Positions 32,263-61,733 of a stretch of 64,000 nt of DNA are shown here, one piece after another. Origin of the DNA: an uncultured Gammaproteobacteria bacterium (GTDB lineage: Bacteria > Pseudomonadota > Gammaproteobacteria > PS1 > Pseudothioglobaceae); assembly GCA_902556205.1 (NCBI GenBank), contig CACDVH010000005.1:9091-73090 (forward strand), in the 5' to 3' direction. The number at the start of each line of letters is the position of its first letter. The first letter of the stretch is position 1. Position numbers and translations under genes: made by a program. The notes under the pieces were generated by a model. That model saw only the letters and a list, made by a program, of their open reading frames with translations, searched no databases and had not been told where the DNA came from.

Positions 32263-33372
32263 CTAGAAGCGAGAACCAGCAAAGCTGATTTGATGATGAG
32301 TGCATGAAAGCCAATCTCTATTAATTTCAATTCCCCAGCCAGGCTGATGAGTCATTTCTAAGTTTCCTTTAACAATCTTAAAATCTGGGGTAAAAATGTT
32401 GTCTTGCCAAGGGTAATAATCAAGGCCCTCAATAGAAAATTCGAGATACTTTCCTGGATTATTTATAGAGCCCATAATGTGTGCAGAAAAAAGCGTTACT
32501 AATGAAAGATTAGCAGCATGCAGAGTCACTGGAATACTCTTTTTTTCAGCCATTTTAGCAACTTCTAATGTTCGAGTAATGCCTCCTAGGTAACAAATAT
32601 CAGGCTGGATAATATCAACTACTTTAGTGTCAATCATATGCCTCCAAACCCTCATGTCATTATCCTGCTCACCACCACTGACATCAATCTCAAGGGCATC
32701 AGAGACTTCTCGAGTCCAGTCTGGTTTCCAATAAGGACATGGCTCTTCAAAATGACTCACGCTATAATCCTGGAGCATATGTCCTACTTCTATTGCTTTT
32801 TTTGGACTGTAAGCACTATTAGCATCAACAAGCAAAGTCACTTTATCACCTAACTGCTTCCTCACCTCTTTGACAATTGATTCAGTTCGACCAGGCCATT
32901 GATCTATGTCATGGCCGCACTCTTTACCAATTCTAAACTTAAAGGCATAGTAGCCATACTTTTCCTTTAACTCCAGAAGTCTCTGGGCTTCAGCTTCAGG
33001 AGAAATTTCGCGCTGCATACTAGATGCATACACTGGAATAGATTTAGGGTTCCCTCCAATAAGCTGACATACACTTTGATTGGCTCTTTTCGCCTTAATA
33101 TCCCAAAGTGCGGTATCTACGCCGCATAGTGCCCTATAAAGATAAGTGCCAGGAAATTTATGTTCTCTTTCCAAAACCTCTCGGTTGACTTCCGGTATGT
33201 TAAGTCCACTCATCCCCAAAACATGGGGGGCAACTTGAAGATGGACTATTTGAGAGGTTATTTCACTGTTATAGGTTGCAGTCTGCCCCCATCCTTCATC
33301 ACCCTCATCAGTTCTCAAACGAACCAATCCAACATATTCATTAGTAAATGTTTCAATGCTAATTATCTTCAT
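32263..33372 (-). CDS. Enolase-superfamily enzyme (mandelate racemase / muconate lactonizing enzyme family)
   Basis: 369 aa. Metal-ligand pattern LLVDANSAY / HFEEPC / SGGEQD, then IIQPDI and TLHAAN (Asp/His-type base). 14-nt overlap with the upstream GMC gene. Confidence 0.8.
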   Translation of the reverse strand: MKIISIETFTNEYVGLVRLRTDEGDEGWGQTATYNSEITSQIVHLQVAPHVLGMSGLNIPEVNREVLEREHKFPGTYLYRALCGVDTALWDIKAKRANQSVCQLIGGNPKSIPVYASSMQREISPEAEAQRLLELKEKYGYYAFKFRIGKECGHDIDQWPGRTESIVKEVRKQLGDKVTLLVDANSAYSPKKAIEVGHMLQDYSVSHFEEPCPYWKPDWTREVSDALEIDVSGGEQDNDMRVWRHMIDTKVVDIIQPDICYLGGITRTLEVAKMAEKKSIPVTLHAANLSLVTLFSAHIMGSINNPGKYLEFSIEGLDYYPWQDNIFTPDFKIVKGNLEMTHQPGWGIEINRDWLSCTHHQISFAGSRF

Positions 33373-34993
33373 GCTTTGTTCTTTGATCCTTCAAAATGAG
33401 ATCGGATGCTTTTTCGCCAACCATAATAGTTGCGGCGTTAATATTACCACAGACTAAGCTCGGAAATATTGACGCATCAACAACTCTCAGACCTTCAATC
33501 CCATAAACTTTAAGGTCACTATCTACAACATTGCTTTTTGGATCAGACCCCATTCTACAGGTACTGGATGGATGAAATACTGTCCATACGGTATCTTTAA
33601 TGTGTTGAATCATTTGCTCATCTGTCTGGCACTGAGGGCCTGGTCGAAACTCCTCTCCAATAACTGGTCTAAAACTATCAGTTTTTGCTAGCTTCCTCAA
33701 AATCTTTACGCCCGCTAATAAGTCTTTGACATCATCCTCATTAGAAAGGTAATTAGGCCTAATGATGGGTGTTTTCAATGGGTCACTGCTTCTCAGATGC
33801 ACGCTGCCTCTTGATCTCGGACTACAATTTGAAATACCCAGAAGCATTGCTGAAAATGGATCTGGACTCATCATTGCACGTCTATCTGGAGACTCCAATG
33901 AGTAGCTGACTGGCGAAAAATAAAGCTGGATATTTGGCTTTTCAAGATCATCTCGAGTTCGAATGAAGCCGCCTGACTGATTGACACTTAAACTGAGCGG
34001 CCCTCTCCTTAAAAAAATATATCGAAGCCCGTGATAAACTTTACCTAGAACTGGTCTTAACTGGTCATTCAAAGTAGGTACTTTACTTTTATAAAAATAA
34101 CTCACACCGAGATGGTCTTGAAGGTTTTCTCCAACTGCAGGGCTATCATGAACTATTGGAACTGAAGCTTGCTCTAAGATATTTTTTGGCCCCACTCCGG
34201 AGAGTTGAAGGAGTTGTGGTGAGTTTATTGACCCTGCACTCAATATAACTTCACGCAATGCAGTAGCCTTGGAAGTCTTGCCTGACTTTAAGTATTCGAC
34301 TCCATACGCCCTTTTATTTTTTATGAGGACTTTTGTTACCCTAGCATTCTTGACAATTGTAAGATTGGATCGGCCCTTTGTTGGCCATATATACGCTCTC
34401 GAAGCAGACATTCGCTGACCCTTGTGGGTAGTAATCTGGTAATTACCCACTCCCTCTTGTTTCTCACCATTCATATCAGGATTTAACTGAATGCCAATCT
34501 CTTGAGCAGCAGATAAAAAATTCTCGCAAAGGAGGTGCAACTGGTTTGTCACTTCAGAGACATTTAAAGGCCCATCACCACCCCTGAAATTATCACTACC
34601 TTTTTGCCAAGATTCCATTTTCTTAAAGTAGGGCAGAACCTCTTTGTATGACCAGCCAGGATTTCCAGCTTCTGACCATTCATCAAAATCCTTTGGATTT
34701 CCTCTGACATAGACCATGGCATTGATTGAACTAGAACCTCCCATTACCTTTCCTCGCGGCCAATAACTGGGCTTATTGTCAGCATCTGGACTTGGCTCTG
34801 TCAAATACATCCAATTGACCTTTTTTTGGTGATAAGTAACTCCATAACCAATAGGCATCTGAATGAAAAAGCGTCGATCTGATCCGCCAGCCTCTATGAG
34901 TAAAACTTTATTCGCAGGGTCTTCACTTAGCCTATTCGCCAAAACACAACCTGCGGAACCTGCACCAACGATAATATAATCGTAATCTTTCAT
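33359..34993 (-). CDS. GMC-family FAD oxidoreductase (choline/alcohol dehydrogenase-like)
   Basis: 544 aa. Contains YDYIIVGAGSAGCVLANRLSED, GGSSSINAM.Y.RG and a C-terminal active-site region HPSSTCRMG....VVD..L.V.G...LRV.DAS.FP. Confidence 0.9.
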   Translation of the reverse strand: MKDYDYIIVGAGSAGCVLANRLSEDPANKVLLIEAGGSDRRFFIQMPIGYGVTYHQKKVNWMYLTEPSPDADNKPSYWPRGKVMGGSSSINAMVYVRGNPKDFDEWSEAGNPGWSYKEVLPYFKKMESWQKGSDNFRGGDGPLNVSEVTNQLHLLCENFLSAAQEIGIQLNPDMNGEKQEGVGNYQITTHKGQRMSASRAYIWPTKGRSNLTIVKNARVTKVLIKNKRAYGVEYLKSGKTSKATALREVILSAGSINSPQLLQLSGVGPKNILEQASVPIVHDSPAVGENLQDHLGVSYFYKSKVPTLNDQLRPVLGKVYHGLRYIFLRRGPLSLSVNQSGGFIRTRDDLEKPNIQLYFSPVSYSLESPDRRAMMSPDPFSAMLLGISNCSPRSRGSVHLRSSDPLKTPIIRPNYLSNEDDVKDLLAGVKILRKLAKTDSFRPVIGEEFRPGPQCQTDEQMIQHIKDTVWTVFHPSSTCRMGSDPKSNVVDSDLKVYGIEGLRVVDASIFPSLVCGNINAATIMVGEKASDLILKDQRTKHEDN

Positions 34994-35097: not shown

Positions 35098-35832
35098 TTG
35101 ACTTCAGACCCAGTAATTTTTCAATCAATATTAATTTTTGGTGCATTCATAGCAGGTATTGTCCAGGGTGCGACAGGCTTTGGAAGTGGAATTGTATTAA
35201 ATGCTTTTTGGCTTCATATTCTTGAGCCATCCGCTGCAATTTCATTAAACATTGTCTCCTGTTTATTTGTCTCTGCACTTCCCATATTCAAGCTTCGTAA
35301 AACTTTAAACTTCTCAAAACTTAAATCATTTGTAACTTTTGGTGTCATTGGAATACCGACTGGATTGCTCATATTAACTTTAACTGAACCAACAATTTTT
35401 AAGACAACAGTTGGGTTTATATTGGTTCTCTTTTCAATCTGGAAATTTAAAAGTAAAAACATTTTAATAAACTTTAAAAGCAGTCCCTCACTTGATAAAT
35501 TGATTGGCTTTATTAGCGGCATATTGGGAGGATTTGCTGCGCTTGGTGGAATACTCCCAACAATCTGGGTTAATCTTCAAAGACTTCCAAAAAATACTCA
35601 GCGTGGGACCTACGAACCATTCATTTTTATTACGAGTATTGCAGCAGTTGTTAGCTTTTATTTTGCTGGGTTTTTGAATTTAGATATTTTTTATTATTTT
35701 CTTAAGGTTTTTCCAGCCTTGATTATTGGGTCTCTTATTGGTGTCAAGATTTATTCATTTATTGATGAAGACCTTTTTCAAAAGGTTATTTTGGGGCTTA
35801 TTTTTTTTGCAGGGTTAGTATTATTATTTTGA
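35098..35832 (+). CDS. TauE/SafE-family (DUF81) anion exporter
   Basis: 244 aa, about 8 TM. G-rich TM motifs (GATGFGSGI; GGFAALGG). TTG start as given by the ORF track. Confidence 0.7.
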   Translation: MTSDPVIFQSILIFGAFIAGIVQGATGFGSGIVLNAFWLHILEPSAAISLNIVSCLFVSALPIFKLRKTLNFSKLKSFVTFGVIGIPTGLLILTLTEPTIFKTTVGFILVLFSIWKFKSKNILINFKSSPSLDKLIGFISGILGGFAALGGILPTIWVNLQRLPKNTQRGTYEPFIFITSIAAVVSFYFAGFLNLDIFYYFLKVFPALIIGSLIGVKIYSFIDEDLFQKVILGLIFFAGLVLLF

Positions 35833-35970: not shown

Positions 35971-36987
35971 ATGAAACTAATAAATAAATTATTAGCTGTA
36001 ACAGCTATTTCGGTTGCTCTAGTGCCAGGAGTTGTGAGCGCTGACTGCGGAAAAGCAAGACTAGCTGATTTTGACTGGAGTAGTGCTAACATTCACACGG
36101 CAATTGCTGGCTTTATCTTAGAGCACGGCTATGGTTGCGATGTTTCTGTAACAAAAGGAAGCACAACACCAATTATGGCTGCACACTATGATGGACAGCT
36201 TGATGTTGTGACTGAGCTTTGGTATGACAACATTAAAGATACTTATGATAGTCATGAAGCAGCAGGAACAGTAAGAAACCTAGGAATTAATACGCCTGAC
36301 TCTCAGCAAGCATTCTACGTTGATAGAGCGACTGCTGATAAGTACAATCTTAGAAATGTGCTAGATATGAACAGCCCAGAAATTGCTGCGTTATTCAGTG
36401 ATCCAGAAAACCCTTCAATGGGAAGAATGACAAGTTGTATTGGTGGCTGGACTTGCTACACAATTAACCTTGTTAAACAAAAAGCTTACGGATTAGATAA
36501 ATACTACACTAACTTTGATCCAGGTTCAGGTGGAGCACTTGATGCGGCTATTGCTGGTGCGTTTGCTAAAAAGCAGCCAATCTTTACTTACTATTGGGCG
36601 CCAACAGGTTTGATGGGCAAAGTTGATTTAGTAAGACTAGCTGAGCCACCATTTAACGCCGAGTGCTGGGCATCAATGCAAGTTGTTGTTGAAGATATCA
36701 AGGCTAATGGAACAGATGCATGGAAGCCAACTTGTGGAGTTGAGTATAGAGACATGTCATTAGACAAGTCAGTTCTTGCCTCATGGGCTGATTCTCATCC
36801 TGATGAGACTGCATTCATCGAAGCATATAGCATACCAACTGCACAAGTCAATAGACTGCTTGCATTCTATGAAGATGAGTCAGATGGTGATATGGAGCTA
36901 ACTGCAATGGAATACTTATCCAATGATGACACATGGAAAGCTTGGGTGCCAGCAGACGTAGCTGCTAAGGTATCTGCAGCTCTATAA
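35971..36987 (+). CDS. Quaternary-amine (glycine betaine/proline betaine/carnitine-type) ABC transporter substrate-binding protein, ProX-like
   Basis: 338 aa. Signal peptide, then an aromatic-rich OpuAC/ProX-type fold (DWSSANIHT, ELWYDN, GGWTCY, YYWAPT). Followed by ProW/ProV-type genes. Strong RBS AGGAGAG. Confidence 0.8.
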   Translation: MKLINKLLAVTAISVALVPGVVSADCGKARLADFDWSSANIHTAIAGFILEHGYGCDVSVTKGSTTPIMAAHYDGQLDVVTELWYDNIKDTYDSHEAAGTVRNLGINTPDSQQAFYVDRATADKYNLRNVLDMNSPEIAALFSDPENPSMGRMTSCIGGWTCYTINLVKQKAYGLDKYYTNFDPGSGGALDAAIAGAFAKKQPIFTYYWAPTGLMGKVDLVRLAEPPFNAECWASMQVVVEDIKANGTDAWKPTCGVEYRDMSLDKSVLASWADSHPDETAFIEAYSIPTAQVNRLLAFYEDESDGDMELTAMEYLSNDDTWKAWVPADVAAKVSAAL

Positions 36988-37001
36988 GTTAGATTACATA
37001 T

Positions 37002-37032
37002 AAAAAAGAGCCCACTTGTGGGCTCTTTTTTT
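37002..37032 (+). terminator. Intra-operon rho-independent terminator/attenuator after the SBP gene
   Basis: GAGCCCA (37008-14) pairs with TGGGCTC (37019-25), with a 4-nt loop. Flanked by A6 and T7 tracts. Lies between the SBP stop (36987) and the permease start (37049). Confidence 0.75.
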
Positions 37033-37048
37033 AAATAGAATAAGCATC

Positions 37049-38050
37049 ATGATAAGAAAATTACTCACCTACTTTACTTTTCCCATAATCTTTGTTTGGC
37101 TTTTAGTTGTAAGCTATAACTCATCTAAAAGAAAGCCCGACAGCGCTATGGAACTTTTAACTGATCCCAGTTGGCTTTATGATTGGCCAAAATGGTTAGA
37201 TATTCCATTAATGAAGTGGATCAATGATGGCTTCAAGGTCTTCAATGAAAAGTATGGAATTTACTTTGAAGTAATCAATGACTTTCTTCTTGGTGCAATC
37301 CTGTCACTCAAAAAATTCTTAATTGTTTTGCCATGGCCAGTGGTCATCGCACTTGTTGTTGCAATTGTTTTCTTCTCGAGTGGAAGAAAACTTGGAACAA
37401 CCGTTTTTGTAGGAATCTGTACATTTTTTATTGGCTTCCTTCATCCCAAGTTTTGGGATAAAGCCATAGAAACCACCTCAATCATGATTATTGGAATTCT
37501 CATATGTATCATTATTGGTATTCCTCTAGGTATTGCAATGGCAAGAAATAACAAACTTCGAAATGCAATACTCCCTGTGCTCGATTTAATGCAAACAATC
37601 CCAAGCTTTTGCTATCTCATTCCAGGAATTATGCTCTTTGGACTTGGAGCAGTTCCAGCGATTATTGCAACCGTTATTTATGCAGTACCCCCACTAGTTC
37701 GTCTAACTGACCTAGGAATCACCTTAGTTGATACAGAAGTCATCGAAGCGGCTGAAGCCTTTGGGGCTAGCAAAAGACAGAAACTATTGGGCGTTCAGCT
37801 ACCACTCGCACTTCCAAATATTATGCAGGGAATTAACCAGTGCACGATGATGGCACTAGCCATGGTTGTTATTGCATCTATGATTGGAACGAGAGGCCTG
37901 GGCGATGAAGTTCTACTTGGACTCCAACAGTTGAACGTTGGAAAAGCTACCGAAGCTGGACTTGCAATTGTTCTTCTGGCAATCGTTTTAGATCGAATTA
38001 CCCAGGCTTATGGTAAAAAAATTCAAGATAGAAACCAACCACCAAAATAG
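37049..38050 (+). CDS. proW: Glycine betaine/proline-type ABC transporter permease
   Basis: The EAA-loop IEAAEAFGASKRQKLLGVQLPLALP and 6+ TM segments. Start moved to ATG 37049, because the ORF-track TTG at 37016 lies inside the terminator loop. Confidence 0.88.
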   Translation: MIRKLLTYFTFPIIFVWLLVVSYNSSKRKPDSAMELLTDPSWLYDWPKWLDIPLMKWINDGFKVFNEKYGIYFEVINDFLLGAILSLKKFLIVLPWPVVIALVVAIVFFSSGRKLGTTVFVGICTFFIGFLHPKFWDKAIETTSIMIIGILICIIIGIPLGIAMARNNKLRNAILPVLDLMQTIPSFCYLIPGIMLFGLGAVPAIIATVIYAVPPLVRLTDLGITLVDTEVIEAAEAFGASKRQKLLGVQLPLALPNIMQGINQCTMMALAMVVIASMIGTRGLGDEVLLGLQQLNVGKATEAGLAIVLLAIVLDRITQAYGKKIQDRNQPPK

Positions 38051-38059
38051 ATTCCTATT

Positions 38060-39094
38060 ATGTCGAAAATTGAAATAAACAATATTTATAAAATATTTGG
38101 TCCTAACCCTCAGCAAATAATGCCAATGGTAAAAGATGGAGCATCTAAAGAACAAGTGATGGAGGAAACAGGTCACACCGTTGGTCTTGATAACGTCTCA
38201 TTATCTATTGAAGAAGGGGAAATCTTTGTCTGTATGGGGCTTTCTGGCTCAGGAAAGTCAACACTAATTAGGCACATTAATAGGCTAATTGATCCTACTG
38301 CAGGAGAGGTTCTTGTTAACAATGTTGATGTTTGTAGTTTAGACGAAAAAGAAATATTAGAGTTCAGAAAAAAAACCATGAGTATGGTATTCCAGCGATT
38401 TGGACTATTTCCTCATAAGACGATTATTGAAAATGTTGCCTATGGTCTAGAGATTCAAGAGGTTCCTGAAGATCAAAGACATGAGATTGCACAGGGCCAA
38501 ATCAAGGCTGTTGGTCTTGAGGGCTTTGAACACCAGTATCCAGCCCAACTCTCTGGTGGAATGCAGCAAAGGGTTGGTCTAGCAAGAGCACTTGCAACTA
38601 ACCCCGAAATTCTTTTAATGGATGAAGCATTCAGTGCATTAGACCCGCTTATAAGAAGTGAAATGCAGAATCAATTGGTCGAACTTCAAGCCAAACTCAA
38701 AAAAACTATTGTCTTCATAACACATGATCTTGATGAATCTCTTAAACTAGGTGATCACATTGGTATTCTCAATGGTGGAAGACTGGTTCAGGTTGGAAAG
38801 CCGGAAGATATTATCTTAAATCCTGCTGATGATTACGTTAAAGCTTTTGTAAAAGATGTCAACCGCTCTAAAGTTCTTCGAGCAAGAACCATTATGACTA
38901 AACTGGATAAGTTTGATAAGTCATCAGTTAATCCATCATCAACATATAAGTATGATGAGGATACCTATATTGAAGATATTGTTCCTAAGGTATTAAAGGA
39001 CAGGTCAACAATTGAGGTTATTGATAAAGAAGGTATGACTACTGGATTTATCACATCTGATGAACTCTCAGTTGCACTAACTAAAACGAAATAA
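38060..39094 (+). CDS. proV: Glycine betaine/proline-type ABC transporter ATPase
   Basis: 344 aa. Walker A GLSGSGKST, signature LSGGMQQRVGLARAL, Walker B ILLMDEAFSALD, and a short CBS-like tail. Confidence 0.92.
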   Translation: MSKIEINNIYKIFGPNPQQIMPMVKDGASKEQVMEETGHTVGLDNVSLSIEEGEIFVCMGLSGSGKSTLIRHINRLIDPTAGEVLVNNVDVCSLDEKEILEFRKKTMSMVFQRFGLFPHKTIIENVAYGLEIQEVPEDQRHEIAQGQIKAVGLEGFEHQYPAQLSGGMQQRVGLARALATNPEILLMDEAFSALDPLIRSEMQNQLVELQAKLKKTIVFITHDLDESLKLGDHIGILNGGRLVQVGKPEDIILNPADDYVKAFVKDVNRSKVLRARTIMTKLDKFDKSSVNPSSTYKYDEDTYIEDIVPKVLKDRSTIEVIDKEGMTTGFITSDELSVALTKTK

Positions 39095-39101: not shown

Positions 39102-39875
39102 TTGAAATCTGCGAGCAAAAATATAATTATTTCAGCAGCGGCAGATGGAATTGGCTGGTGCATTGCCAAGTCCTTGTTAGACCGGGGATACACAGTTTAT
39201 GCTTCTGATATAAATCAAAAAAAAATTAATGAACTAAATCATCATCCTCTAATCAATACAAGATTATTTGTTGACAACGTAGATGCTGCAAATGCAGATT
39301 CAGTAAATAATTATTTTGAATCTTTAAAATTATCAAGCATTGATGGCTTGATTAATAATGTTGGTATTGCAGGACCCACTGGAACAATGGAGGAAATATC
39401 AATAGATGACTGGAATCAAACTATAGAAACGAACTTAAATAGTCATTTTTATTTTACTAAGCAGGCTATACTACTTTTAAAGAAAAATAAAGGTGGGTCA
39501 ATTGTCAACCTATCTTCAACAGCTGGAATCTTTGGGTTTCCTTTGAGAACGCCCTATGCAGCATCTAAATGGGCAATTATTGGAGTCACTAAATCCTTGG
39601 CTATGGAGCTAGGAAAATTCAATATACGAGTCAATGCAATCTGTCCAGGTTCGGTGTCAGGAGATCGAATTAATAGGGTGATTGAGGCAAAGGCAAAATC
39701 ACTTAAAACTCCTGTTAGTGAAGTCAAAGAAGATTTTGAGGGTATGGTTTCACTGAAATCTTTCGTTGACAAAGAAGATATTGCTAATATGGCAACATTT
39801 CTTTTATCTGACCAAGCGAAGAAAATATCCGGTCAAGTCATGACCGTAGATGGCAATACTGAAAGGATGGACTAA
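39102..39875 (+). CDS. Short-chain dehydrogenase/reductase (SDR)
   Basis: 257 aa. Contains NNVGIAG and the catalytic SS...YAASK. TTG start. Last gene of the plus-strand transporter unit. Confidence 0.85.
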   Translation: MKSASKNIIISAAADGIGWCIAKSLLDRGYTVYASDINQKKINELNHHPLINTRLFVDNVDAANADSVNNYFESLKLSSIDGLINNVGIAGPTGTMEEISIDDWNQTIETNLNSHFYFTKQAILLLKKNKGGSIVNLSSTAGIFGFPLRTPYAASKWAIIGVTKSLAMELGKFNIRVNAICPGSVSGDRINRVIEAKAKSLKTPVSEVKEDFEGMVSLKSFVDKEDIANMATFLLSDQAKKISGQVMTVDGNTERMD

Positions 39876-39900: not shown

Positions 39901-40545
39901 TTAATGAAGCCCTGCAATATACTGAGATAGAGCATCTATTTCTTCATTAGTCAGACCCATAGCAACATTATTCATCATCTCATTGACTCGCTCTACACCA
40001 TCAGAGCCTGTCTGTTTATTGATGGAATACTGACGGAAAGCCTTTAGCTGTGATGCAGTGTACTCAGCGTGCTGCGCTGCAACTGCTGGGAATCCTGCAG
40101 TTGGTATCCCCTCGCCTTTGGCACCATGACATGCAATACAAGCAGTCGTTTGAGTTTCCATTTTACCGCCTACATAAATTTTTCTACCAAGTTCAATTTG
40201 TTCAGCTGAACCCTTAGCGGAGTTTTCACTAATTGTTTGGATTGAGTAGTAAGCAGCAATATCTTCCATATCTTGGTCAGAGAGTAATGAGGCGACACCA
40301 GCCATCATTGCATTGTTTCTCTCACCAGATTTAAAATGCTGAAGTTGCTTGACAAGATAAGCCTCTCCTTGACCAGCAAGCTTTGGAAAGTTTGGGATCG
40401 TACTATTTCCGGCTAGACCATGGCAGCCCATACATGTAGCAGATTTAACTTGGCCTGCTTCTGCATCTCCTGCAGCCATTGAAGGACTAACTAGCGTGGT
40501 CATTAGTATGGAAGCTAAAATAATAAGCGTTTTTTTCATTCTCAA
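39901..40545 (-). CDS. cc4: Diheme cytochrome c4
   Basis: 214 aa. Signal peptide, two heme sites (CMGCH, CIACH), and two Met-containing distal-ligand segments (ERNNAMM; VNEMMNNVA). Confidence 0.9.
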   Translation of the reverse strand: MRMKKTLIILASILMTTLVSPSMAAGDAEAGQVKSATCMGCHGLAGNSTIPNFPKLAGQGEAYLVKQLQHFKSGERNNAMMAGVASLLSDQDMEDIAAYYSIQTISENSAKGSAEQIELGRKIYVGGKMETQTTACIACHGAKGEGIPTAGFPAVAAQHAEYTASQLKAFRQYSINKQTGSDGVERVNEMMNNVAMGLTNEEIDALSQYIAGLH

Positions 40546-40628
40546 TCTCCAAAAAATTCAGTGAAATTATACGTGATAAATCTGGGTTAAGAAACCCTCT
40601 AATTACTTAAAATTTAAAAAGAAAAATT

Positions 40629-40952
40629 CTATCTTTGCGGATCTTGAATAGAGAGATATTCTGCTATCGATCTCTCAAAACCTTCAGCCATTGGAGCCAT
40701 TGCATTCATATATGAATTTTGACGCTGACCCGACTGAAAATATTCAAGTTGCTGGATGATCCATTCGACATCTTTGCCTGCAAGAGAGGGAATTGCTTCG
40801 TCATTAGAGCGTCCATTTTCACCGTGGCAACTTGCACATCCTAGTGCACCATACATTGCCTCACCCTCACTATTGGCATGAATACTAATAGAAAAAGTGG
40901 CTAAAACAAACACGATAATCGTATGAATAAATTTTGTCATAGTTCTAAGCAC
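40629..40952 (-). CDS. Monoheme class I cytochrome c
   Basis: 107 aa. Signal peptide, CASCH heme site, and a downstream NSYMNAMAPM Met ligand region. Confidence 0.85.
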   Translation of the reverse strand: MLRTMTKFIHTIIVFVLATFSISIHANSEGEAMYGALGCASCHGENGRSNDEAIPSLAGKDVEWIIQQLEYFQSGQRQNSYMNAMAPMAEGFERSIAEYLSIQDPQR

Positions 40953-41010: not shown

Positions 41011-41796
41011 TTATTGACCTTTCCATTCAGGTGATCGTTTTTCTGAAAAGGCAATTGGCCCCTCCTTAGCATCCTCAGAATTTAGCATTTTATGATAGGC
41101 TTCAATTTTTCCAGATCGCATCAATTCATAAGCCTCCTCTAAGCCCATCATTTCAGTTGATCTCATAACAGACTTTATGGCTGCCAAAGAGAGTGGAGCT
41201 GAATTTGAAATCTGATGAGCCCACTCAAGAGCATCATTAATTAAATCATCTTGATCACAACTTCTATTAACCAGACCATAATGTTTTGCCTCTTCAACAC
41301 CCATCCTTCGGCCAGTCATAAGCATATCCATTGCGACTGGCTTTGGTAAGCGGCGTGGAAGTCTCAAAACACCACCACTGTCTGGGATAAGACCTAAAGT
41401 AGCCTCAGGTACAAAAAATTCTGCACTAGTTGAAGCAATTATCAGATCTGCAGCGAGTGCCAACTCAAACCCACCACCAACTGCTAATCCGTTCACTGCA
41501 GCAATTACAGGTTTATTTAGATCCCATAACTCTGTCAGACCCGCAAAACCACCGGGGCCAAAATCAGCATCAATCGCTTCCCCTTCAGAAGCGGCCTTTA
41601 AATCCCATCCTCCACAAAAAAAACGATCTCCAGCGCCAGTAATAACCGCAGCTCTAAGGTTATAATCATCCCTGAACCGAATAAAGGCTTCTCCAAGTTC
41701 ATAGCTCGTTTTTACATCGATAGCATTAGCTTTTGGACGATCCAAAGTGATTAAAACAACCTCGCCATGGATCTCATAATTTACTGAATCATTCAT
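41011..41796 (-). CDS. caiD: Carnitinyl-CoA dehydratase-like crotonase (CaiD family)
   Basis: 261 aa. Tracks E. coli CaiD, as I recall it, over the full length: [48 protein letters not shown]...[31 protein letters not shown] and SEDA.EGP.AF.EKR.P.WKG. Confidence 0.8.
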
Positions 41797-41811
41797 ATTT
41801 ACCTCAATCTA

Positions 41812-43869
41812 TTATTCTGAGTATAGCTTGATAAGTGTATCAGCTGCAACAACACCGTCTGAGCCTTTTAACACCAATAATGGATTAATGTCCAACTCTT
41901 CAACTGCGTTTGTACGGATTAATTCAATTACTGACATTACAGAATCTATTACAGCTTCAATATCTCCCTTCATACCGCCTCTGTAGCCCTCAAGTAGCTT
42001 GAAGACTTTTAAATTTGATAAAGCCTGACGGATATCTTCTCTACTAACAGGCAACATGAGAACAGAACTATCTTGCAAAAGTTCAACATATATACCGCCA
42101 CCGCCAACAATGATATGCTTCCCAAAGGTAGGATCATAGTCCATACCAATGATGAGTTCGCAAATAGGACTTTCAATCATTTTTTCAATTAAAAGCTCTG
42201 GGCTAATTTTGAATAAGTCATCACAAGCTTCTTTCAGAGTTTTCACATTTTGAATATTCAACCTAACACCATTCAATTCAGTCTTATGTGCTAATTTTGC
42301 ACCCGACACCTTAAGCGTTACTGGAAAGGAAATCTCCTCAGCAGCCTTTATCGCTTCAGTCACATTCTCAACAAGACATCCCATAGGTATTGTTACCCCA
42401 TATTTCTTTAGTAACTGTTTGCCTTGATACTCTGTTAATTGCTGCTTAGATTTATGTTCTGAACTATTTCTCAAAACCTCTAAATCAGGACTTGAATTAC
42501 TTGAAAAAGCCCTCCCAATTTTATAGGAGTGATTGAGCGCTTTTAAACATACATCTAACCCGACCATAGGAGCAATACCCAAACTTAGACACTCCTCTAT
42601 GATTCTTTTTGGCATACAGTCTGCCATAGATGCCAGTACGATTGCTTTTTCACTCGTGCCAGAAAGAGCATCTGAAAGAGCAAATAAAGTTGCGTCCCAG
42701 TCCTTTTGTTCCGATTCCTTAGACTTAGGCCAGTCCAAAAGCAGCATTGTTGCAGCAAATTGGCCACTCATCATGGCACTAAAGCATTCTGACGTTCTCT
42801 TTCTATCGCCCCAAATAAACGTATGGTAATCAAGCGGGTTATCTACCTCAACATAATCGTTTAGCGTCTGCTTAACTTTGGCCTTGTGTGATGAGCTGAG
42901 TGATGGAAAATTAATCTCTAAGCCATCAATTAAATCAGCCATCATTCCTGCCTCTCCCCCTGAGCAACTCATTGATGCGACGCCGCCATGTTCAATGACA
43001 CCCAATACATTGATAAGTTTAAGTGTTTCTAGAAACTCTGGAACAGTCTCTACTCTGGCTATACCAAGTCGCTCAAAAAGGGCATTATATAATTCATCTG
43101 AACCTGTTAATGAGCTTGTGTGGCTAAGAGCAATCTTTGCAGAGGCTTTTGTTTTTCCTGATTTAATAGTAATGATTGGAATTTTCATCATAAGAGCCCT
43201 TTTAGCTGCAATATCAAACGACTTAATGTCAGAAATACCTTCAATGTGGAGGCCAATCGCATTGACTCTTGAGTCATCCAACATCGCATGAATAATGTCT
43301 GCAATATTAGTATTTGTTTGATTTCCAAGAGTAAACATATAGGCAATTGGAAGACCGGAGGACTGCATAGTCATGTTCAGACCTATATTTCCGCTTTGTG
43401 TTATTATTGCAACACCTTCAGATACCGGTTCACAGCCATGAACATCTGGCCAAAGAGCAATCCCATCAAGACTATTTATAAAGCCATAACAATTTGGACC
43501 TATTAGCGGCATTCCAGAAGCAGCTTTCACTAATTGTTGATTGCGCATCAAACCCTCAGCGCCGACCTCTCCAAATCCAGAGGCATACAAAACAGCACCG
43601 CCACCGCCCATAGACTTCAGGTCAGATACAACCTCAATGGCAGACTCTGCATTAACTGCAATAAAAGTAGCGTCTGGAACTTCTGGCAAATCTTTAATGT
43701 CTTTAAAACATTTGATACCTTCAAGTGACTCTAGGTAAGGGTGAACTGCCCATATTTGATGACTATATCCTAATTTAAGAGATTCTCTAATCGCAAAATT
43801 TGCACCTCGATTGCCAACCACAGCGATTGACTTCGGAGAGATTAATCGATGCAAATTGCTTTTGCTCAT
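41812..43869 (-). CDS. NDP-forming acyl-CoA synthetase superfamily protein (CoA-binding + succinyl-CoA-synthetase-like + ATP-grasp); substrate unknown
   Basis: 685 aa. N-terminal CoA-binding Rossmann (SIAVVGN), a phosphohistidine-loop-like ALSHTSSLTGS, NPLDY, and a C-terminal ATP-grasp half (KQLLKKYGV..P, FPV.LK, ...HK...GGV.L). This is the architecture of acetate--CoA ligase (ADP-forming) and DddX. Confidence 0.8.
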   Translation of the reverse strand: MSKSNLHRLISPKSIAVVGNRGANFAIRESLKLGYSHQIWAVHPYLESLEGIKCFKDIKDLPEVPDATFIAVNAESAIEVVSDLKSMGGGGAVLYASGFGEVGAEGLMRNQQLVKAASGMPLIGPNCYGFINSLDGIALWPDVHGCEPVSEGVAIITQSGNIGLNMTMQSSGLPIAYMFTLGNQTNTNIADIIHAMLDDSRVNAIGLHIEGISDIKSFDIAAKRALMMKIPIITIKSGKTKASAKIALSHTSSLTGSDELYNALFERLGIARVETVPEFLETLKLINVLGVIEHGGVASMSCSGGEAGMMADLIDGLEINFPSLSSSHKAKVKQTLNDYVEVDNPLDYHTFIWGDRKRTSECFSAMMSGQFAATMLLLDWPKSKESEQKDWDATLFALSDALSGTSEKAIVLASMADCMPKRIIEECLSLGIAPMVGLDVCLKALNHSYKIGRAFSSNSSPDLEVLRNSSEHKSKQQLTEYQGKQLLKKYGVTIPMGCLVENVTEAIKAAEEISFPVTLKVSGAKLAHKTELNGVRLNIQNVKTLKEACDDLFKISPELLIEKMIESPICELIIGMDYDPTFGKHIIVGGGGIYVELLQDSSVLMLPVSREDIRQALSNLKVFKLLEGYRGGMKGDIEAVIDSVMSVIELIRTNAVEELDINPLLVLKGSDGVVAADTLIKLYSE

Positions 43870-43874
43870 TTTAA

Positions 43875-45032
43875 CTACTCAAAGGGTCTAAGCAAAGATC
43901 TAGAGATAATGTGCCTTTGTATCTCGCTCGTTCCATCCCATATTCTTTCTACTCGATGATCTCTCCATATTCTCTCAAGGGGAAGCTCATCCATCAGTCC
44001 CATGCCACCTAAAATTTGAATAGCCTCATCAGAAATCATTGCCAGAACCTCAGTTGCTTTAAGTTTTGCCATGGCGGCATCACTATTGGTCATCTGACCT
44101 TGAGAATCCTTCCATGCAGCTTTCAAAGTCAGTAATTCTGCTGCATTGAGCTCCATTGACATATCAGCAAGTTTAAATGAAACCCCTTGGAATTTGCCTA
44201 TCGTTTGACCAAATTGTTCTCGTGTTGCAGCCCATTCTGTTGCAATCTGCAAAGCCCTTTCCGCTCTACCAAGACACATCGCAGCAACGGACAATCGAGT
44301 CGCACCCAACCATTCATTAGCCACATCAAAACCATGGTCAACCTCACCGAGAACTTGTGATTCATGCACTCTACAGTTATCAAAATTAAGTATAAAGTTA
44401 TGGTAACCCCTATGAGAAACACTGTTGTAGCCGGGCTCAACTGAGAAGCCTGGCGTACCCATATCGACTAAAAAGCTTGTAATCTTTTTTTTCTCACCCC
44501 TTGGAGTTTGCTCAACACCCGAAGCAGCAAATAATATGACATAGTCAGCCATGTCCGCATGACTAATAAAATGCTTAGAGCCATTAATGACAAAAAATTC
44601 ACCATCTCTCTCCGCTTTACATTTCATTGAGCGAACATCAGAGCCAGCATTTGGCTCCGTCATCGCAAGACAGTCAACCTTTTCTCCCCGAATTGTTGGT
44701 AGCAAATATTCATCGATCTGTGATCCTTTACATGCCAATAAAATATTACTTGGACGAGCTACAATATACTGAAGTCCAAAATTTGCTTTTCCCAATTCTT
44801 TTTCTAATAGGCATAATGTAAGAGAATCTAACCCACCACCACCATGAGTTTCAGGCATATTGCATGCATAAAGTCCACTTTCTATTGATTTTTGCTTTAT
44901 CTGCTCTACAACTGAATCTTCTATTTTATTGTTCTTTTCAACCTCCTCTTCAAAAGGGTAAAGCTCTTTTTCAACAAAACTTTTGACAGAGTCAATAATC
45001 ATTTCTTGTTCGCTTGTAAGTCCAAAATTCAT
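43875..45032 (-). CDS. Acyl-CoA dehydrogenase
   Basis: 385 aa. Contains MTEPNAGSD, FISHA, QFG..IG.FQ and the C-terminal R...I.DGTSEIQR catalytic-Glu region. Confidence 0.92.
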   Translation of the reverse strand: MNFGLTSEQEMIIDSVKSFVEKELYPFEEEVEKNNKIEDSVVEQIKQKSIESGLYACNMPETHGGGGLDSLTLCLLEKELGKANFGLQYIVARPSNILLACKGSQIDEYLLPTIRGEKVDCLAMTEPNAGSDVRSMKCKAERDGEFFVINGSKHFISHADMADYVILFAASGVEQTPRGEKKKITSFLVDMGTPGFSVEPGYNSVSHRGYHNFILNFDNCRVHESQVLGEVDHGFDVANEWLGATRLSVAAMCLGRAERALQIATEWAATREQFGQTIGKFQGVSFKLADMSMELNAAELLTLKAAWKDSQGQMTNSDAAMAKLKATEVLAMISDEAIQILGGMGLMDELPLERIWRDHRVERIWDGTSEIQRHIISRSLLRPFE

Positions 45033-45058
45033 GTCTTTCGCCTCTTATTCAATTAACC

Positions 45059-45583
45059 TTATTTGATCTCCATTACTCGCCCTTTTTGCTTTGGTGAGGC
45101 TAGCTTTTTATGCTCACTCCAAATCTTTTGCAGTATTGTAAATACTGATTGATCTATCTCGCTTGCTTTTGCTTTATTCATATCTACATGAACGAGCATC
45201 TGTTCGGTTGTTGCCAATAATTCTCCACTTTCTCCATGAAACATTTGATGAAAAATGTGAAGTCTCTTTGAGTCAAGACCTAATATTTGAGTAGAAAACT
45301 GTAATGGCTCATTCTCTGATACCTCTAAATAATAATTAATATGCGTCTCTACCGTATAGAAAGACTGTCCCGCAAGCCTATAATCATTATCAATCCCTAT
45401 ATATTGAAAAAGTGCATCTGAGGCATCACCAAAAGCATAAAGATAGAATGACTCGCTCATATGTCCATTGTAGTCAATCCAATCTGTGTGAACTTTGGCA
45501 CTATAAAGGACAAGAGGCTTATCTAATTTATCACTCTCTGAATAATACTGATACTCTCTTGTTAGATATATTTCATTGTCCAT
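45059..45583 (-). CDS. Hotdog-fold (4HBT-type) acyl-CoA thioesterase, betainyl/carnitinyl-CoA-thioesterase-like
   Basis: 174 aa. WIDYNGHMSESFYLYAFGDASDALFQYIGID..YR......YTVETHINYY resembles thioesterases found with carnitine dehydrogenase (CdhB-type). Family assignment is from memory only. Confidence 0.6.
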   Translation of the reverse strand: MDNEIYLTREYQYYSESDKLDKPLVLYSAKVHTDWIDYNGHMSESFYLYAFGDASDALFQYIGIDNDYRLAGQSFYTVETHINYYLEVSENEPLQFSTQILGLDSKRLHIFHQMFHGESGELLATTEQMLVHVDMNKAKASEIDQSVFTILQKIWSEHKKLASPKQKGRVMEIK

Positions 45584-53121: not shown

Positions 53122-55680
53122 TTATTGTTGAATTTGAACAACTTTCCTCTTTCTTCTTAATTGCACAAAACCAACCATCCCTATTAATAATATTGCTGGA
53201 ATATAAACAATTTGTTTAGGCATAGTCTCCCTTTCTTGAAGAACTGAAGTAATAATCCAGCCACTATCTACACCTGCAACTTTTATGGATTCAACCTGTT
53301 TATTTATGGCTCGACTATTTGAAATTCCTGGGAGCACCATTGCAACTTCCATATCTCCAAATAAGTCATCTATTTGAAGTCCAGTATTATTTACCCTTTC
53401 TCTACCTGTCGCCCCATCAGCTAATGGTAATAAAAATGTGTAACTTCTCTCAACACCTTCAATTGTCTCGCCCTCAACAACAAAACGGATTGATTCACCT
53501 TCACTCATACTCTCAGCAACTGTAAACAACTCCTGACCTGAAATATTTTCATAAGGAGGGTCGACTTTATCCAAAAAATATCCTGGCCTGAAAAACATGA
53601 ATGCTACAAACAACATCAATACAGTCTCCCACAGTCGATTTTTAACAAGCCAATAACCCTGAGTAGCTGCAGCAAAAAGTAGAATTGCAATAACTGATGA
53701 GGTTACAACTGAAATAAAACTTATTACACTGTCAATACCAATCATAAGTAGCTGGGTATTGAAAATAAAAATAAATGGAAGTACGGCTGTCCTCATGTCA
53801 TAGATGAAACCCTGAATACCAGTTCTTATCGGATCCCCCTTGGAAATCGCTGCTGCTGCATAGGCAGCAAGACCCACTGGTGGCGTGTCATCAGCTAAAA
53901 TACCAAAATAAAAAACAAACATATGCGCTGCAATCAAAGGAATAGCGACATTATTAGCTGCACCTAAACTCATGATTACAGGGGCCATTAGACTTGAGAC
54001 GACAATATAATTAGCTGTTGTTGGTAAGCCCATTCCTAGAATAAGACTTATCATTGCAGTAAAAAGTAATATTAAAAATAAGTTTCCTGCAGCAATGAAT
54101 TCAACCCAGCCAATTATTAATTGTCCCACTCCAGTTAGTGTTACCGTGCCAACAATGATTCCTGCTGCAGTAGTAGCAACTCCGACACCAATCATATTTC
54201 TAGCTCCATTTACAAAACCAAGCTTTAGATCTATCAAACTTGAAACTAGATGAGCTGCAAAATTAGATTGGCGTCGAAATAAAGCTAAGATAAATTTCTG
54301 CGTTAGCACAATAAACATCATGAACATAGTTGCCCAGTAAACTGAAGTTTCGGGCGAAAACCGCTCAACAGTTAGTAACCAAATTAACAAAATGACTGGC
54401 AGTAAAAAATGAAGTCCTGCCTTAACTGTCTTGCCAATTTCAGGAATTTCAATTATATCTCCTGAGGGCAAATCTGGCATTCTTGAAACAGAATACAAGA
54501 GTCCAACATAACTAAAAAACATAATTAATGCTACAATTAATGTAGTTGCTTCGCCAGCGATCATCTTAATAAATTCGAAGAGAGGCGGGAGCACCCAAAC
54601 AAGAGTACCCAGAACAATCAAAACACTTGAAATACCGATTAACCTATCAACTTTATTAAGCTTGTTGGTTCTAGTAAGTCCTTCCATTCCAGACTTTAAA
54701 GCCTCCAAGTGAACGATATAGATCAGTGCAATGTAAGAAATGACAGCAGGCAAGAAAGCATGCTTAATTACTTCAATGTAAGAGACGCCGACATACTCAA
54801 CCATTAGAAATGCTGCAGTACCCATAATTGGCGGAGTTAGTTGGCCATTGGTAGAGGATGCAACCTCAATTGCTCCAGCTTTCTCGGATGGGAAGCCGAC
54901 TCGTTTCATTAATGGAATTGTAAATGTGCCTGTCGTTACAACATTGGCAATGGAGGATCCAGAAATCATACCAGTCATGGCAGAAGAGACGACTGCAGCC
55001 TTTGCAGGTCCCCCTCGATAATGTCCAGTAAGTGCATAAGCAACCCGTATGAAATAATTACCAGCACCAGCTCTTTCCAGTAGAGCGCCAAAAAGAACAA
55101 ATAAGAAAACCATACTTGCCGAGACTCCAACAGCGATTCCAAATGCTCCTTCAGTAGTAATCCACATGTGTGAGACAATTTTATTTAATGAAGCTCCCCC
55201 ATAACCGCCAGCCCCAAGAAATGCATAGGTCAACGCAATAATTGCTACTACCATTAGCGGTGGCCCAAGAGATCTTCTTGTAGCCTCTAAAAGAAGTAGA
55301 ATTCCAATAATGCTCAAAAATAAATCCGTTGAGTTTGGAACACCTAGCCGCATTTCAAAAGCCCTTGAATCCCAAACCTGGTTATAAACCAAATACAGAC
55401 AAGAAACGACTATAAGAATTCCCATAATCCAATCAGCCCATGGAATGACGACTCTCGATGATCTTTTAAGAGCTGGATAACTTAGAAAAGCTAAAAAGCC
55501 TGCAAAAGAGACATGAACTCTCTTCACTACATCTGCATTCATCCAAGGTGTTACTTCAAGAACTAAAGGGGAAGAAACGTAAAGCTGGAAGACTGACCAG
55601 GCCATAGCAACATAGATTAATATGTTCCTAATTAGTAGATTTCCTGGGTTTCTGTTTCCCGTTTCTAGATCGACTTCCAT
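53122..55680 (-). CDS. TAXI-type TRAP transporter fused permease (4TM/12TM fusion with C-terminal DUF3394-like extension)
   Basis: 852 aa and very hydrophobic. Sits downstream of a TAXI receptor. The C-terminal ~150-aa soluble segment plus final TM resembles the extension common in this family. Confidence 0.85.
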   Translation of the reverse strand: MEVDLETGNRNPGNLLIRNILIYVAMAWSVFQLYVSSPLVLEVTPWMNADVVKRVHVSFAGFLAFLSYPALKRSSRVVIPWADWIMGILIVVSCLYLVYNQVWDSRAFEMRLGVPNSTDLFLSIIGILLLLEATRRSLGPPLMVVAIIALTYAFLGAGGYGGASLNKIVSHMWITTEGAFGIAVGVSASMVFLFVLFGALLERAGAGNYFIRVAYALTGHYRGGPAKAAVVSSAMTGMISGSSIANVVTTGTFTIPLMKRVGFPSEKAGAIEVASSTNGQLTPPIMGTAAFLMVEYVGVSYIEVIKHAFLPAVISYIALIYIVHLEALKSGMEGLTRTNKLNKVDRLIGISSVLIVLGTLVWVLPPLFEFIKMIAGEATTLIVALIMFFSYVGLLYSVSRMPDLPSGDIIEIPEIGKTVKAGLHFLLPVILLIWLLTVERFSPETSVYWATMFMMFIVLTQKFILALFRRQSNFAAHLVSSLIDLKLGFVNGARNMIGVGVATTAAGIIVGTVTLTGVGQLIIGWVEFIAAGNLFLILLFTAMISLILGMGLPTTANYIVVSSLMAPVIMSLGAANNVAIPLIAAHMFVFYFGILADDTPPVGLAAYAAAAISKGDPIRTGIQGFIYDMRTAVLPFIFIFNTQLLMIGIDSVISFISVVTSSVIAILLFAAATQGYWLVKNRLWETVLMLFVAFMFFRPGYFLDKVDPPYENISGQELFTVAESMSEGESIRFVVEGETIEGVERSYTFLLPLADGATGRERVNNTGLQIDDLFGDMEVAMVLPGISNSRAINKQVESIKVAGVDSGWIITSVLQERETMPKQIVYIPAILLIGMVGFVQLRRKRKVVQIQQ

Positions 55681-55693
55681 TGGAATATTGTAT

Positions 55694-55726
55694 AAAAAAA
55701 AAGGATGGCAAAGCCATCCTTTTTTT
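55694..55726 (-). terminator. Intra-operon rho-independent terminator/attenuator after the TAXI receptor gene
   Basis: GGATGGC (55703-09) pairs with GCCATCC (55713-19), with a 3-nt loop. Flanked by A9 and T7 tracts, so it looks bidirectional. Lies between the SBP stop (55740) and the permease start (55680). Confidence 0.75.
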
Positions 55727-55739
55727 CATAACTTAAATA

Positions 55740-56717: not shown

Positions 56718-56805
56718 TTCATCTCCTTTGTTTTATTAGACAAAAAATTTAAGTCCAAAATAGTTATACCATATTTAATACAATTGTTTCAATATTTATA
56801 TGTAT

Positions 56806-56821
56806 AAAACACAAGTGTTTT
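56806..56821. promoter_or_regulatory. Candidate operator: AAAACAC-AA-GTGTTTT inverted repeat in the TRAP/RpiR divergent region
   Basis: Perfect 7-bp arms with a 2-nt spacer, 48 nt upstream of the regulator ATG (56870) and 88 nt upstream of the SBP start (56717). Confidence 0.35.
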
Positions 56822-56869
56822 CATTTTGTTCGAGTTTATTTAGCTAGATTTATAGTAGAATATTCAGCT

Positions 56870-57751: not shown

Positions 57752-57773
57752 TTACAGCTTATGGATCGTACCA

Positions 57774-60027: not shown

Positions 60028-60071
60028 ATTCTTAGTAGATACTCAAACTGTAAGTCAGAAAACCAAGTCTA

Positions 60072-61718: not shown

Positions 61719-61733
61719 TAGATTACCTCATTG

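Follow-up and report, generated by a model that had tools for sequence, protein, structure and literature searches.

Four closely spaced minus-strand genes at positions 41011-45583 of the window, by which we mean the whole 64-kb stretch of DNA that was analysed, encode a hotdog thioesterase, an acyl-CoA dehydrogenase (ACAD), a fused coenzyme A (CoA) ligase and a crotonase. This quartet is quite probably a bco-type module in Pseudothioglobus that would convert gamma-butyrobetaine to L-carnitine through CoA esters. The case is built on gene identities, catalytic residues, and orthology and synteny with a Rhizobiaceae cluster, all of which can be read directly from the DNA. We regard the quartet as an uncharacterised marine member of the known bco pathway, with a stripped-down architecture and in an abundant marine lineage; gamma-butyrobetaine and carnitine are thereby indicated as a carbon, nitrogen or osmolyte resource. 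Because the quartet is a version of a characterised pathway (a link that is indirect for the BcoA/B family), its ATP-grasp CoA ligase would be the usual enzyme there rather than new chemistry; a ligase of the ADP-forming type probably belongs to the bco design already established for carnitine pathways and would thus be no discovery.

Organization of the quartet

The four genes are as follows.

45059-45583, minus strand: hotdog thioesterase, 174 aa (open reading frame (ORF) list; Pfam 4HBT_2)
43875-45032, minus strand: ACAD, predicted BcoC-type, 385 aa (Pfam Acyl-CoA_dh_N/M/1)
41812-43869, minus strand: fused nucleoside diphosphate (NDP)-forming acyl-CoA synthetase, predicted BcoA/B-type, 685 aa (Pfam CoA_binding_2 + Succ_CoA_lig + ATP-grasp_5)
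41011-41796, minus strand: crotonase, predicted BcoD/CaiD-type, 261 aa (Pfam ECH_1)

They are read in the order thioesterase-ACAD-ligase-hydratase, with intergenic gaps of 26, 5 and 15 nt. The ORF list and Pfam reproduce the ORFs, coordinates, gaps and gene families that had been given in the initial annotation of this DNA, and the family matches behind the gene identities are too strong to be due to chance. The complete Pseudothioglobus sp. nBUS_23 genome (L009 in the numbering of the survey described below) shows full synteny with the locus, and the G+C content of the region is 35-41%. Between 35 and 46.5 kb, promoter/terminator hits were no more frequent than expected by chance, and an Rfam search of the window returned no match.

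The initial annotation had described the locus as free of both the CaiB and the CaiC family. By tblastn, the 64-kb window holds no homologue of CaiB, CaiT or CaiE, which upholds the statement for CaiB; for CaiC it needs a qualification, as there are matches to two generic FadD-type AMP-forming ligases (58441-61718), at 23% identity and 13-16 kb away.

The ligase

The 685-aa protein combines PF13380 CoA_binding_2, PF13607 Succ_CoA_lig and PF13549 ATP-grasp_5 (6.7e-49) in one polypeptide. The loop ALSHTSSLTGS, singled out at the outset as resembling a phosphohistidine loop, is indeed present, and its H250 aligns with the phosphohistidine His292 of DddX; this residue, in the SHT motif, is invariant in a 27-sequence ligase alignment. 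Phosphorylation of such a His, formation of an acyl phosphate and then of the CoA thioester, with release of ADP and Pi, is established for NDP-forming acyl-CoA synthetases and has been proposed for DddX.

More than 120 database proteins among the matches listed are 99-100% identical to the ligase; they come from ocean metagenomes, and their named sources are metagenome-assembled genomes (MAGs) of Candidatus Pseudothioglobus/Thioglobus. Its best annotated relatives are Rhizobium and Sinorhizobium 'acetate--CoA ligase family' proteins, which match over the full length at 43-44% identity. In a neighbour-joining tree of 85 ligases rooted with DddX, which carries no bootstrap values, the window ligase is nested inside the bco clade; its neighbours are the ligases of L006, L007 and L038 and of Curvivirga (L008), the last of which keeps a carnitine dehydrogenase-thioesterase fusion. 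Furthermore, a signature, NPLDYHTxxW...(D/E)W, is found in the window ligase and in every bco-context ligase examined, and is missing from DddX and from two Roseobacter paralogues. By its place in the tree and its signature residues, the ligase would be BcoA/B-type and would make gamma-butyrobetainyl-CoA, and possibly crotonobetainyl-CoA, with ADP and Pi as the other products.

The dehydrogenase, hydratase and thioesterase

All three acyl-CoA dehydrogenase Pfam domains are present in the ACAD, which is 61% identical to the ACAD of the Rhizobium etli cluster, 62% to that of Sinorhizobium K101 and 30% to Escherichia coli CaiA. Its D366, in the motif WDGT, occupies the catalytic-base position, and the predicted reaction is conversion of gamma-butyrobetainyl-CoA to crotonobetainyl-CoA. 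At the same position, the 76 ACADs from loci L001-L089 of the survey have WDGT in 39 cases and WEGT in 32; E. coli CaiA has a Gly.

The crotonase matches ECH_1 at 1e-69. Over 261 of 261 residues it shares 61.3% identity with the biochemically characterised CaiD of E. coli K-12, and it keeps both catalytic glutamates, E111 and E131; identity to the hydratase of the R. etli cluster is 48%. When the quartet proteins were searched against 18,950 NCBIfam models, the best match of the crotonase was the CaiD model NF002936, whose 395 bits put it 154 bits ahead of the next family (241 bits). We therefore classify it, from sequence, as a predicted crotonobetainyl-CoA hydratase (carnitinyl-CoA dehydratase) of the BcoD/CaiD type. 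The early recognition of this protein as CaiD-like, and its placement with CaiD rather than with generic enoyl-CoA hydratases, are well supported by the level of identity.

The thioesterase (Pfam 4HBT_2, 5e-28) has a single NCBIfam match, carnitine 3-dehydrogenase NF005716, and the match covers residues 336-491 of that model, its C-terminal thioesterase domain (1.5e-48). The N-terminal domain is unmatched and the score is 166 bits against a cut-off of 592, so the protein itself falls outside the carnitine 3-dehydrogenase family. Residues 343-490 of the R. etli carnitine 3-dehydrogenase share 45% identity with it, and its best solved relative is 2hlj. In loci of Pseudothioglobus, Oceanospirillaceae, Betaproteobacteria, Actinomycetota and Roseiflexaceae, the ACAD gene is directly preceded by an orthologue with 47-89% identity. 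Some betaproteobacterial and actinobacterial loci (L014, L019, L026, L032, L033, L040 and L071) have a pair of thioesterases in the region about 1-4 kb upstream of the ligase. One, which forms a fusion with the carnitine dehydrogenase or comes after it, is 33-37% identical to the window thioesterase, and the other stands free, directly upstream of the ACAD, and is 47-52% identical to it. As the free thioesterase is the closer of the two, the window thioesterase appears to be dedicated to the bco half of the pathway. This arrangement suggests that the two-thioesterase loci have separate thioesterases for carnitinyl-CoA and betainyl-CoA; the window enzyme probably acts on L-carnitinyl-CoA and/or betainyl-CoA.

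Conservation and kinship with the Rhizobiaceae cluster

We surveyed related loci by a profile-guided scan with one genome per species, mapping neighbours by tblastn. The 80 loci recovered include ones from Alpha-, Beta- and Gammaproteobacteria, from Streptomyces, and from MAGs of Actinomycetota and Roseiflexaceae (one each). The order ACAD-ligase-hydratase recurs in roughly 70 of the 80 genomes, which span five phyla or classes. An ACAD lies directly upstream of the ligase at 71 of the 73 assessable loci and is 59-97% identical to that of the window; 68 of 71 loci have a hydratase on the same strand no more than 4 kb away, directly downstream in 66. The co-conservation that the initial annotation had proposed as a check on the quartet is thus borne out for these genes. 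In most surveyed genomes this trio of ACAD, ligase and hydratase is found directly downstream of a carnitine 3-dehydrogenase with fused thioesterase and a dehydrocarnitine cleavage enzyme; specifically, 49 of 58 loci have a BKACE cleavage enzyme and 47 of 58 a carnitine dehydrogenase. Nine of the 58 have neither within 10 kb, and these include loci of the Pseudothioglobus lineage (L003, L004 and L009) and of Oceanospirillaceae/Pseudomonadales (L006 and L038).

R. etli p42c and 'Sinorhizobium' sp. B11 share the gene order GlxA-type regulator, BKACE of the 3-keto-5-aminohexanoate-cleavage type, carnitine 3-dehydrogenase (497 aa), ACAD, ligase, carnitinyl-CoA dehydratase and ABC transporter, and the 3.5-Mb replicon of Sinorhizobium K101 carries the same cluster set. 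The window proteins correspond to those of R. etli one to one and in the same order, at 45% identity for the thioesterase, 61% for the ACAD, 43% for the ligase and 48% for the hydratase.

The genes around the cluster vary among lineages. In a Pseudomonadales MAG (L006, 12899-17458), genes for a GlxA/DJ-1-AraC regulator, another hotdog thioesterase, a homocysteine S-methyltransferase of the betaine-homocysteine type and a methyltransferase of the MttB family come after the quartet, and a formate-tetrahydrofolate ligase lies upstream; this looks like a quaternary-amine (demethylation) context. Ruegeria pomeroyi DSS-3 has a DJ-1/PfpI gene between ligase and hydratase (L089, 8017-8622). In Sulfitobacter W027 a TauD/TfdA dioxygenase and a class II aldolase come right after the bco-cdh cluster (L088, 9885-11740), an arrangement that resembles the Arctic SAR11 carnitine island of PMC12421898.

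The known bco pathway

CoA thioesterification, dehydrogenation and hydration are the basis of the Lonza process for L-carnitine, which uses the Agrobacterium/Rhizobium-like strain HK4. The names bcoA/B, bcoC, bcoD and bcoE come from Lonza patents of the 1990s. The whole conversion of gamma-butyrobetaine to glycine betaine, seven steps with five enzymes, has reportedly been reconstituted, and the thioesterase domain is said to hydrolyse L-carnitinyl-CoA as well.

Rajakovich et al. describe formation of gamma-butyrobetainyl-CoA from gamma-butyrobetaine, ATP, CoA and Mg2+ by the Sinorhizobium meliloti bcoAB gene product, which the authors of Bazire et al. 2019 had supplied. A 2025 paper that cites Bazire et al. 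2019 gives SM2011_c01638 as a bifunctional carnitine dehydrogenase/betainyl-CoA thioesterase. We tentatively equate BcoA/B with the ATP-grasp ligase because bcoAB is a single gene, because its product uses ATP and CoA, and because the ATP-grasp enzyme is the sole ligase-type gene in the Rhizobiaceae cluster.

These precedents change how the locus should be described. The initial annotation had presented it as a Cai-like operon with a swapped ligase, and the CoA-ligation chemistry as undescribed for carnitine-type substrates. The second statement is not supported, given gamma-butyrobetainyl-CoA formation by the S. meliloti bcoAB product, the HK4 route and the collinear Rhizobiaceae cluster. For the same reasons, that is, because a collinear cluster, the bcoAB chemistry and the HK4 route were already known, the locus is better called a bco module than a Cai variant; among its proteins only the hydratase is close to a Cai protein. 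The broader outline of the earlier proposal survives: a loop of activation, dehydrogenation, hydration and thioester hydrolysis fits the gene identities, and gamma-butyrobetaine, crotonobetaine and L-carnitine would still be the likely substrate set.

DddX and the DddX-like enzyme

DddX (7cm9) is the best solved-structure match of the ligase, with 250 bits and an E-value of 5e-73 over the full length. Identity to the Psychrobacter DddX is 28.7% over 686 aligned positions, which is under the identity threshold used for DddX by Li et al. (2021, eLife), >30% identity with >70% coverage. Among the key residues of DddX, His292 is kept as H250, Trp391 aligns with H349/T350, and Glu432 aligns with Q388, with E387 adjacent. 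A strict DddX assignment was rejected on this identity and on the lack of equivalents of the cation-pi Trp391 and the catalytic Glu432. A reading of the quartet as generic fatty-acid beta-oxidation was also rejected.

A second enzyme bears on the ligase. Wang et al. (2026, Eng Microbiol) describe a Roseobacter 'DddX-like' enzyme from Neptunicoccus cionae H-12 (WP_188673365.1), about 23% identical to DddX, that converts dimethylsulfoniopropionate (DMSP), ATP and CoA to dimethyl sulfide (DMS) and acryloyl-CoA with a Km of 1.43 mM and a kcat of 0.42 s-1; mutagenesis implicates His251, Thr351, Trp354 and Trp392. With its publication, DddX is no longer the sole NDP-forming family member reported to act on an onium carboxylate, as had been supposed for this locus. 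Compared by reported residues only, H250, T350, W353 and W391 of the window ligase agree with these four in identity and in their 100/3/38 spacing. The ligases of Roseobacter bco loci share 38-39% identity with that of the window, and those of R. pomeroyi DSS-3, R. conchae and Sulfitobacter W027 bear the signature (L083 7001-9016, L088 5998-8016 and L089 6001-8013; L088 is Sulfitobacter W027 and L089 R. pomeroyi DSS-3); Sulfitobacter W027 has the full BKACE-carnitine dehydrogenase-ACAD-ligase-hydratase set. Because its functional residues coincide with the signature of bco-context ligases, the DddX-like enzyme is probably itself a betaine-CoA ligase of the BcoA/B type. Its cleavage of DMSP may be a side reaction, as a beta-sulfonium thioester is prone to elimination.

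DMSP may likewise be a secondary substrate of the window ligase. The 61% CaiD-like hydratase and the strongly conserved ACAD point to gamma-butyrobetaine and crotonobetaine as the main substrates. If the ligase does accept DMSP, then abundant Pseudothioglobus bacteria would be a minor source of DMS. These similarities also have a consequence for gene surveys: since the ligase reaches 250 bits against DddX and has the DddX-like enzyme's key residues, surveys of dddX or dddX-like genes at E <= 1e-30 would count bco ligases as DMSP lyases.

Neighbouring genes

Next to the quartet are an ABC importer of the betaine/choline family (OpuAC/ProW/ProV-type, by Pfam and NCBIfam; 35971-39094, plus strand), a short-chain dehydrogenase/reductase (SDR) and two c-type cytochromes (Pfam Cytochrom_C; 39901-40952, minus strand).

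35971-36987, plus strand: OpuAC-type binding protein of the importer
37016-38050, plus strand: importer permease
38060-39094, plus strand: importer ATPase
39102-39875, plus strand: SDR (Pfam adh_short_C2)
39901-40545, minus strand: di-haem c-type cytochrome, 214 aa
40629-40952, minus strand: mono-haem c-type cytochrome, 107 aa

The importer ATPase gene ends 1.9 kb from the quartet, in agreement with the betaine-type importer noted earlier at a distance of about 2 kb. The importer is probably an uptake system, whose ligand may be gamma-butyrobetaine or carnitine, DMSP or another onium compound. The SDR gene starts 8 nt past the end of the ATPase gene; SDR and importer run in the same direction, as for cotranscription, and are convergent to the quartet. 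The SDR adjoins the quartet in five of five Pseudothioglobus-lineage genomes. One of these is the single-amplified-genome-derived L004, in which the ATPase gene and the SDR are kept by the quartet (14019-16978) but those for the binding protein and the permease are absent, with holB/tmk/yceG directly after; this absence is either a real deletion or an assembly artefact. L005 has no binding-protein match either.

Homologues of the SDR that are 38-47% identical occur in about 20 other bco loci (for example L012, L016, L021-L023, L067 and L069), where they lie between carnitine dehydrogenase/BKACE and ACAD; in an SDR tree they form the sister clade of the window SDR. We found no function described in the literature for such an SDR in carnitine metabolism. 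From its gene context, it is probably an accessory enzyme of the pathway, perhaps acting as a carnitine or carnitinyl-CoA 3-dehydrogenase. The cytochrome pair lies directly downstream of the hydratase on the same strand, is kept between hydratase and SDR in L004 and L009, and is absent from the bco loci of other lineages.

Two further regions of the window contain metabolic genes. At 32263-34993 there is a GMC oxidoreductase that scores over the NCBIfam choline-dehydrogenase subfamily cut-off (630 versus 605 bits), and an enolase-superfamily (MR/MLE) gene overlaps it by 14 nt; the MR/MLE product scores 436-481 bits against four structural-genomics structures of unknown function (3t8q, 3u4f, 3tcs and 3t9p). 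A TauE/SafE-type membrane protein (35098-35832) adjoins this pair, and the region may be another osmolyte or organosulfur pathway. The stretch at 53122-63808 is a separate acyl-CoA module: after a TAXI-type TRAP transporter (an 852-aa fused permease, and a binding protein) come two AMP-forming acyl-CoA ligases, then a FabK/NMO-like oxidoreductase and, near the window end, a thiolase ORF (63302-63808) whose match to thiolase models is confined to their C-terminal part. For one of the two ligases the 3-(methylthio)propionyl-CoA ligase model gives 383 bits, under its cut-off.

Proposed mechanism and alternatives

The substrates, the formation of ADP, the direction in which the pathway runs and what becomes of the carnitine are inferred from the sequences and gene order as follows. 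The substrate probably enters via the neighbouring betaine-type ABC importer. In the ligase, the ATP-grasp half would phosphorylate H250 on the swinging loop, the phosphoryl group would pass to the carboxylate and CoA would displace it, giving gamma-butyrobetainyl-CoA, ADP and Pi. The BcoC-type flavoprotein ACAD, with D366 as its probable base, would form crotonobetainyl-CoA, to which the CaiD-type hydratase would add water by means of E111 and E131 to give L-carnitinyl-CoA; the stand-alone hotdog thioesterase would then free L-carnitine and recycle CoA. The conversion would be aerobic, in a host that would be a heterotrophic gammaproteobacterium of the SUP05 clade (Candidatus Pseudothioglobus), and crotonobetaine is probably converted as well. 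The carnitine could be oxidized by the SDR, be passed to a dehydrogenase and a cleavage enzyme encoded elsewhere in the genome, or serve as an osmolyte or cryoprotectant.

Several observations weigh against this assignment. The enzymes of the Pseudothioglobus lineage are known from genes alone, and BcoA/B has been equated with the ATP-grasp ligase family indirectly, by description and gene context and not by sequence. The 395 bits of the hydratase are under the curated equivalog cut-off of 500 for NF002936. Neither BKACE nor carnitine 3-dehydrogenase, its N-terminal domain included, was found within the 64-kb window. Among the four proteins conservation is lowest for the ligase, at 43-46% to alphaproteobacterial members, and its specificity may therefore have drifted. 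Finally, two observations point towards DMSP: the best solved relative of the binding protein is the DMSP-specific RnDmpX (7YLE; 116 bits), and the DddX-like enzyme, with the signature residues of bco ligases, cleaves DMSP in vitro and adds to DMS in vivo.

We considered whether the quartet and the SDR together might constitute an undescribed CoA-level route without free carnitine, confined to Pseudothioglobus and a few lineages, with a ligase that may also take DMSP; we think this unlikely. The full form of such a route, which we judge unlikely as well, would be a beta-oxidation from gamma-butyrobetaine to glycine betaine and acetyl-CoA that bypasses free carnitine, carnitine dehydrogenase and the cleavage enzyme: after activation, dehydrogenation and hydration as above, the SDR would oxidise L-carnitinyl-CoA to 3-dehydrocarnitinyl-CoA, a housekeeping thiolase would split it to acetyl-CoA and betainyl-CoA, and the thioesterase would act on betainyl-CoA. 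The absence of the two carnitine enzymes from the window, and from within 10 kb at nine of 58 loci, speaks for it, as does the fact that SDR and quartet stay together even when the importer is broken. The gene order in L067 and L069 is SDR-ACAD-ligase-hydratase, a beta-oxidation set that wants only a thiolase; the thioesterase is homologous to a domain reported to hydrolyse betainyl-CoA, and the window has the thiolase gene fragment at 63302-63808. However, most loci with the SDR also have carnitine dehydrogenase and the cleavage enzyme, and the SDR is therefore no substitute for them there; L022, which has the SDR and the cleavage enzyme and lacks carnitine dehydrogenase, is better explained if the SDR is a dehydrogenase of free carnitine. 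In addition, no cluster contains a thiolase, the SDR is transcribed with the importer and convergent to the quartet, and a similarity of 38-47% among SDRs gives no information on their substrate.

A dedicated DMSP module is improbable in our estimation. Here the ligase would form DMSP-CoA and release DMS and acryloyl-CoA, the crotonase would make 3-hydroxypropionyl-CoA from the latter, and the thioesterase or the ACAD would process C3 CoA esters. The idea draws on the rank of DddX as the best solved relative of the ligase, on the identically spaced residues shared with the DddX-like enzyme, on the report of DmpX in Candidatus Thioglobus, and on the ACAD, whose best NCBIfam match is the acryloyl-CoA reductase AcrC, at 272 bits and far under the cut-off of 640. 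In the binding protein, six of the eight pocket residues of RnDmpX are kept (W35, T64, W84, W152, Y200 and W202; E113 is replaced by Q and A153 by T); such an aromatic cage is general in betaine-binding proteins. The low identity of the ligase to DddX and its missing Trp391 and Glu432 count against DMSP, as do the lack of dddT, dddB or dddC neighbours and the closeness of the hydratase to CaiD. The ACAD, the most conserved protein of the cluster, is found elsewhere beside carnitine enzymes and has no role on DMSP-CoA. The kinetic constants of the DddX-like enzyme are compatible with a side activity of a betaine ligase, and gamma-butyrobetaine was not among the substrates tried. We give very little credence to another acid being the substrate (delta-valerobetaine, beta-alanine betaine, acetate, succinate or aryl-acetates), with the carnitine look of the genes a mere family resemblance. 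In its favour, the ligase goes by no database name other than 'acetate--CoA ligase family protein', all four proteins stay under the NCBIfam equivalog cut-offs, and the ligase has diverged from its alphaproteobacterial relatives. On the other side stand the fact that, across phyla, the genes are syntenic with those for carnitine dehydrogenase and the cleavage enzyme, the CaiD-like hydratase, and a thioesterase that matches nothing but the carnitine-dehydrogenase thioesterase domain among the NCBIfam models; the models for archaeal acetate, 3-hydroxypropionate and 4-hydroxybutyrate ligases give the ligase 259-306 bits against cut-offs of 1200-1300.

Comparison with known systems

DddX of Psychrobacter sp. 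D2 (PDB 7CM9) belongs to the same superfamily as the ligase, has the same fused domain order and phosphohistidine, and acts on an onium carboxylate; its gene neighbours are dddT, dddC and dddB, whereas those in the window are ACAD, hydratase and thioesterase. Carnitine catabolism of the Pseudomonas/SAR11 type shares a homologous thioesterase and the theme of quaternary-amine catabolism in marine bacteria, but there an oxygenase makes carnitine from gamma-butyrobetaine, or the pathway starts from carnitine, and the trio of CoA ligase, ACAD and hydratase has no counterpart.

The E. coli caiTABCDE system is alike in its hydratase, 61% identical, and would use the same gamma-butyrobetainyl-, crotonobetainyl- and carnitinyl-CoA intermediates. 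It differs in having the CaiB transferase, the CaiC AMP-forming ligase, the CaiT antiporter and CaiE, which the window lacks, and in its dehydrogenase: the window ACAD is 30% identical to CaiA and has an acidic residue where CaiA has Gly. The E. coli pathway is anaerobic and reductive, from carnitine to gamma-butyrobetaine; that of the window is expected to be oxidative, from gamma-butyrobetaine to carnitine.

The closest counterpart is the Rhizobium bco-cdh cluster, and the differences from it are in what surrounds the shared genes. There the thioesterase is fused to carnitine dehydrogenase, and in the window it is a separate 174-aa gene. The carnitine dehydrogenase, the cleavage enzyme and the GlxA-type regulator of the Rhizobium cluster are not found near the window quartet; a peptide/nickel-type binding-protein system there contrasts with the OpuAC/ProU-type ABC importer here, and the window adds the SDR and two cytochrome c genes. 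Despite this, the two clusters agree in gene order, protein families, identity of 43-61%, ligase signature residues and pathway logic.

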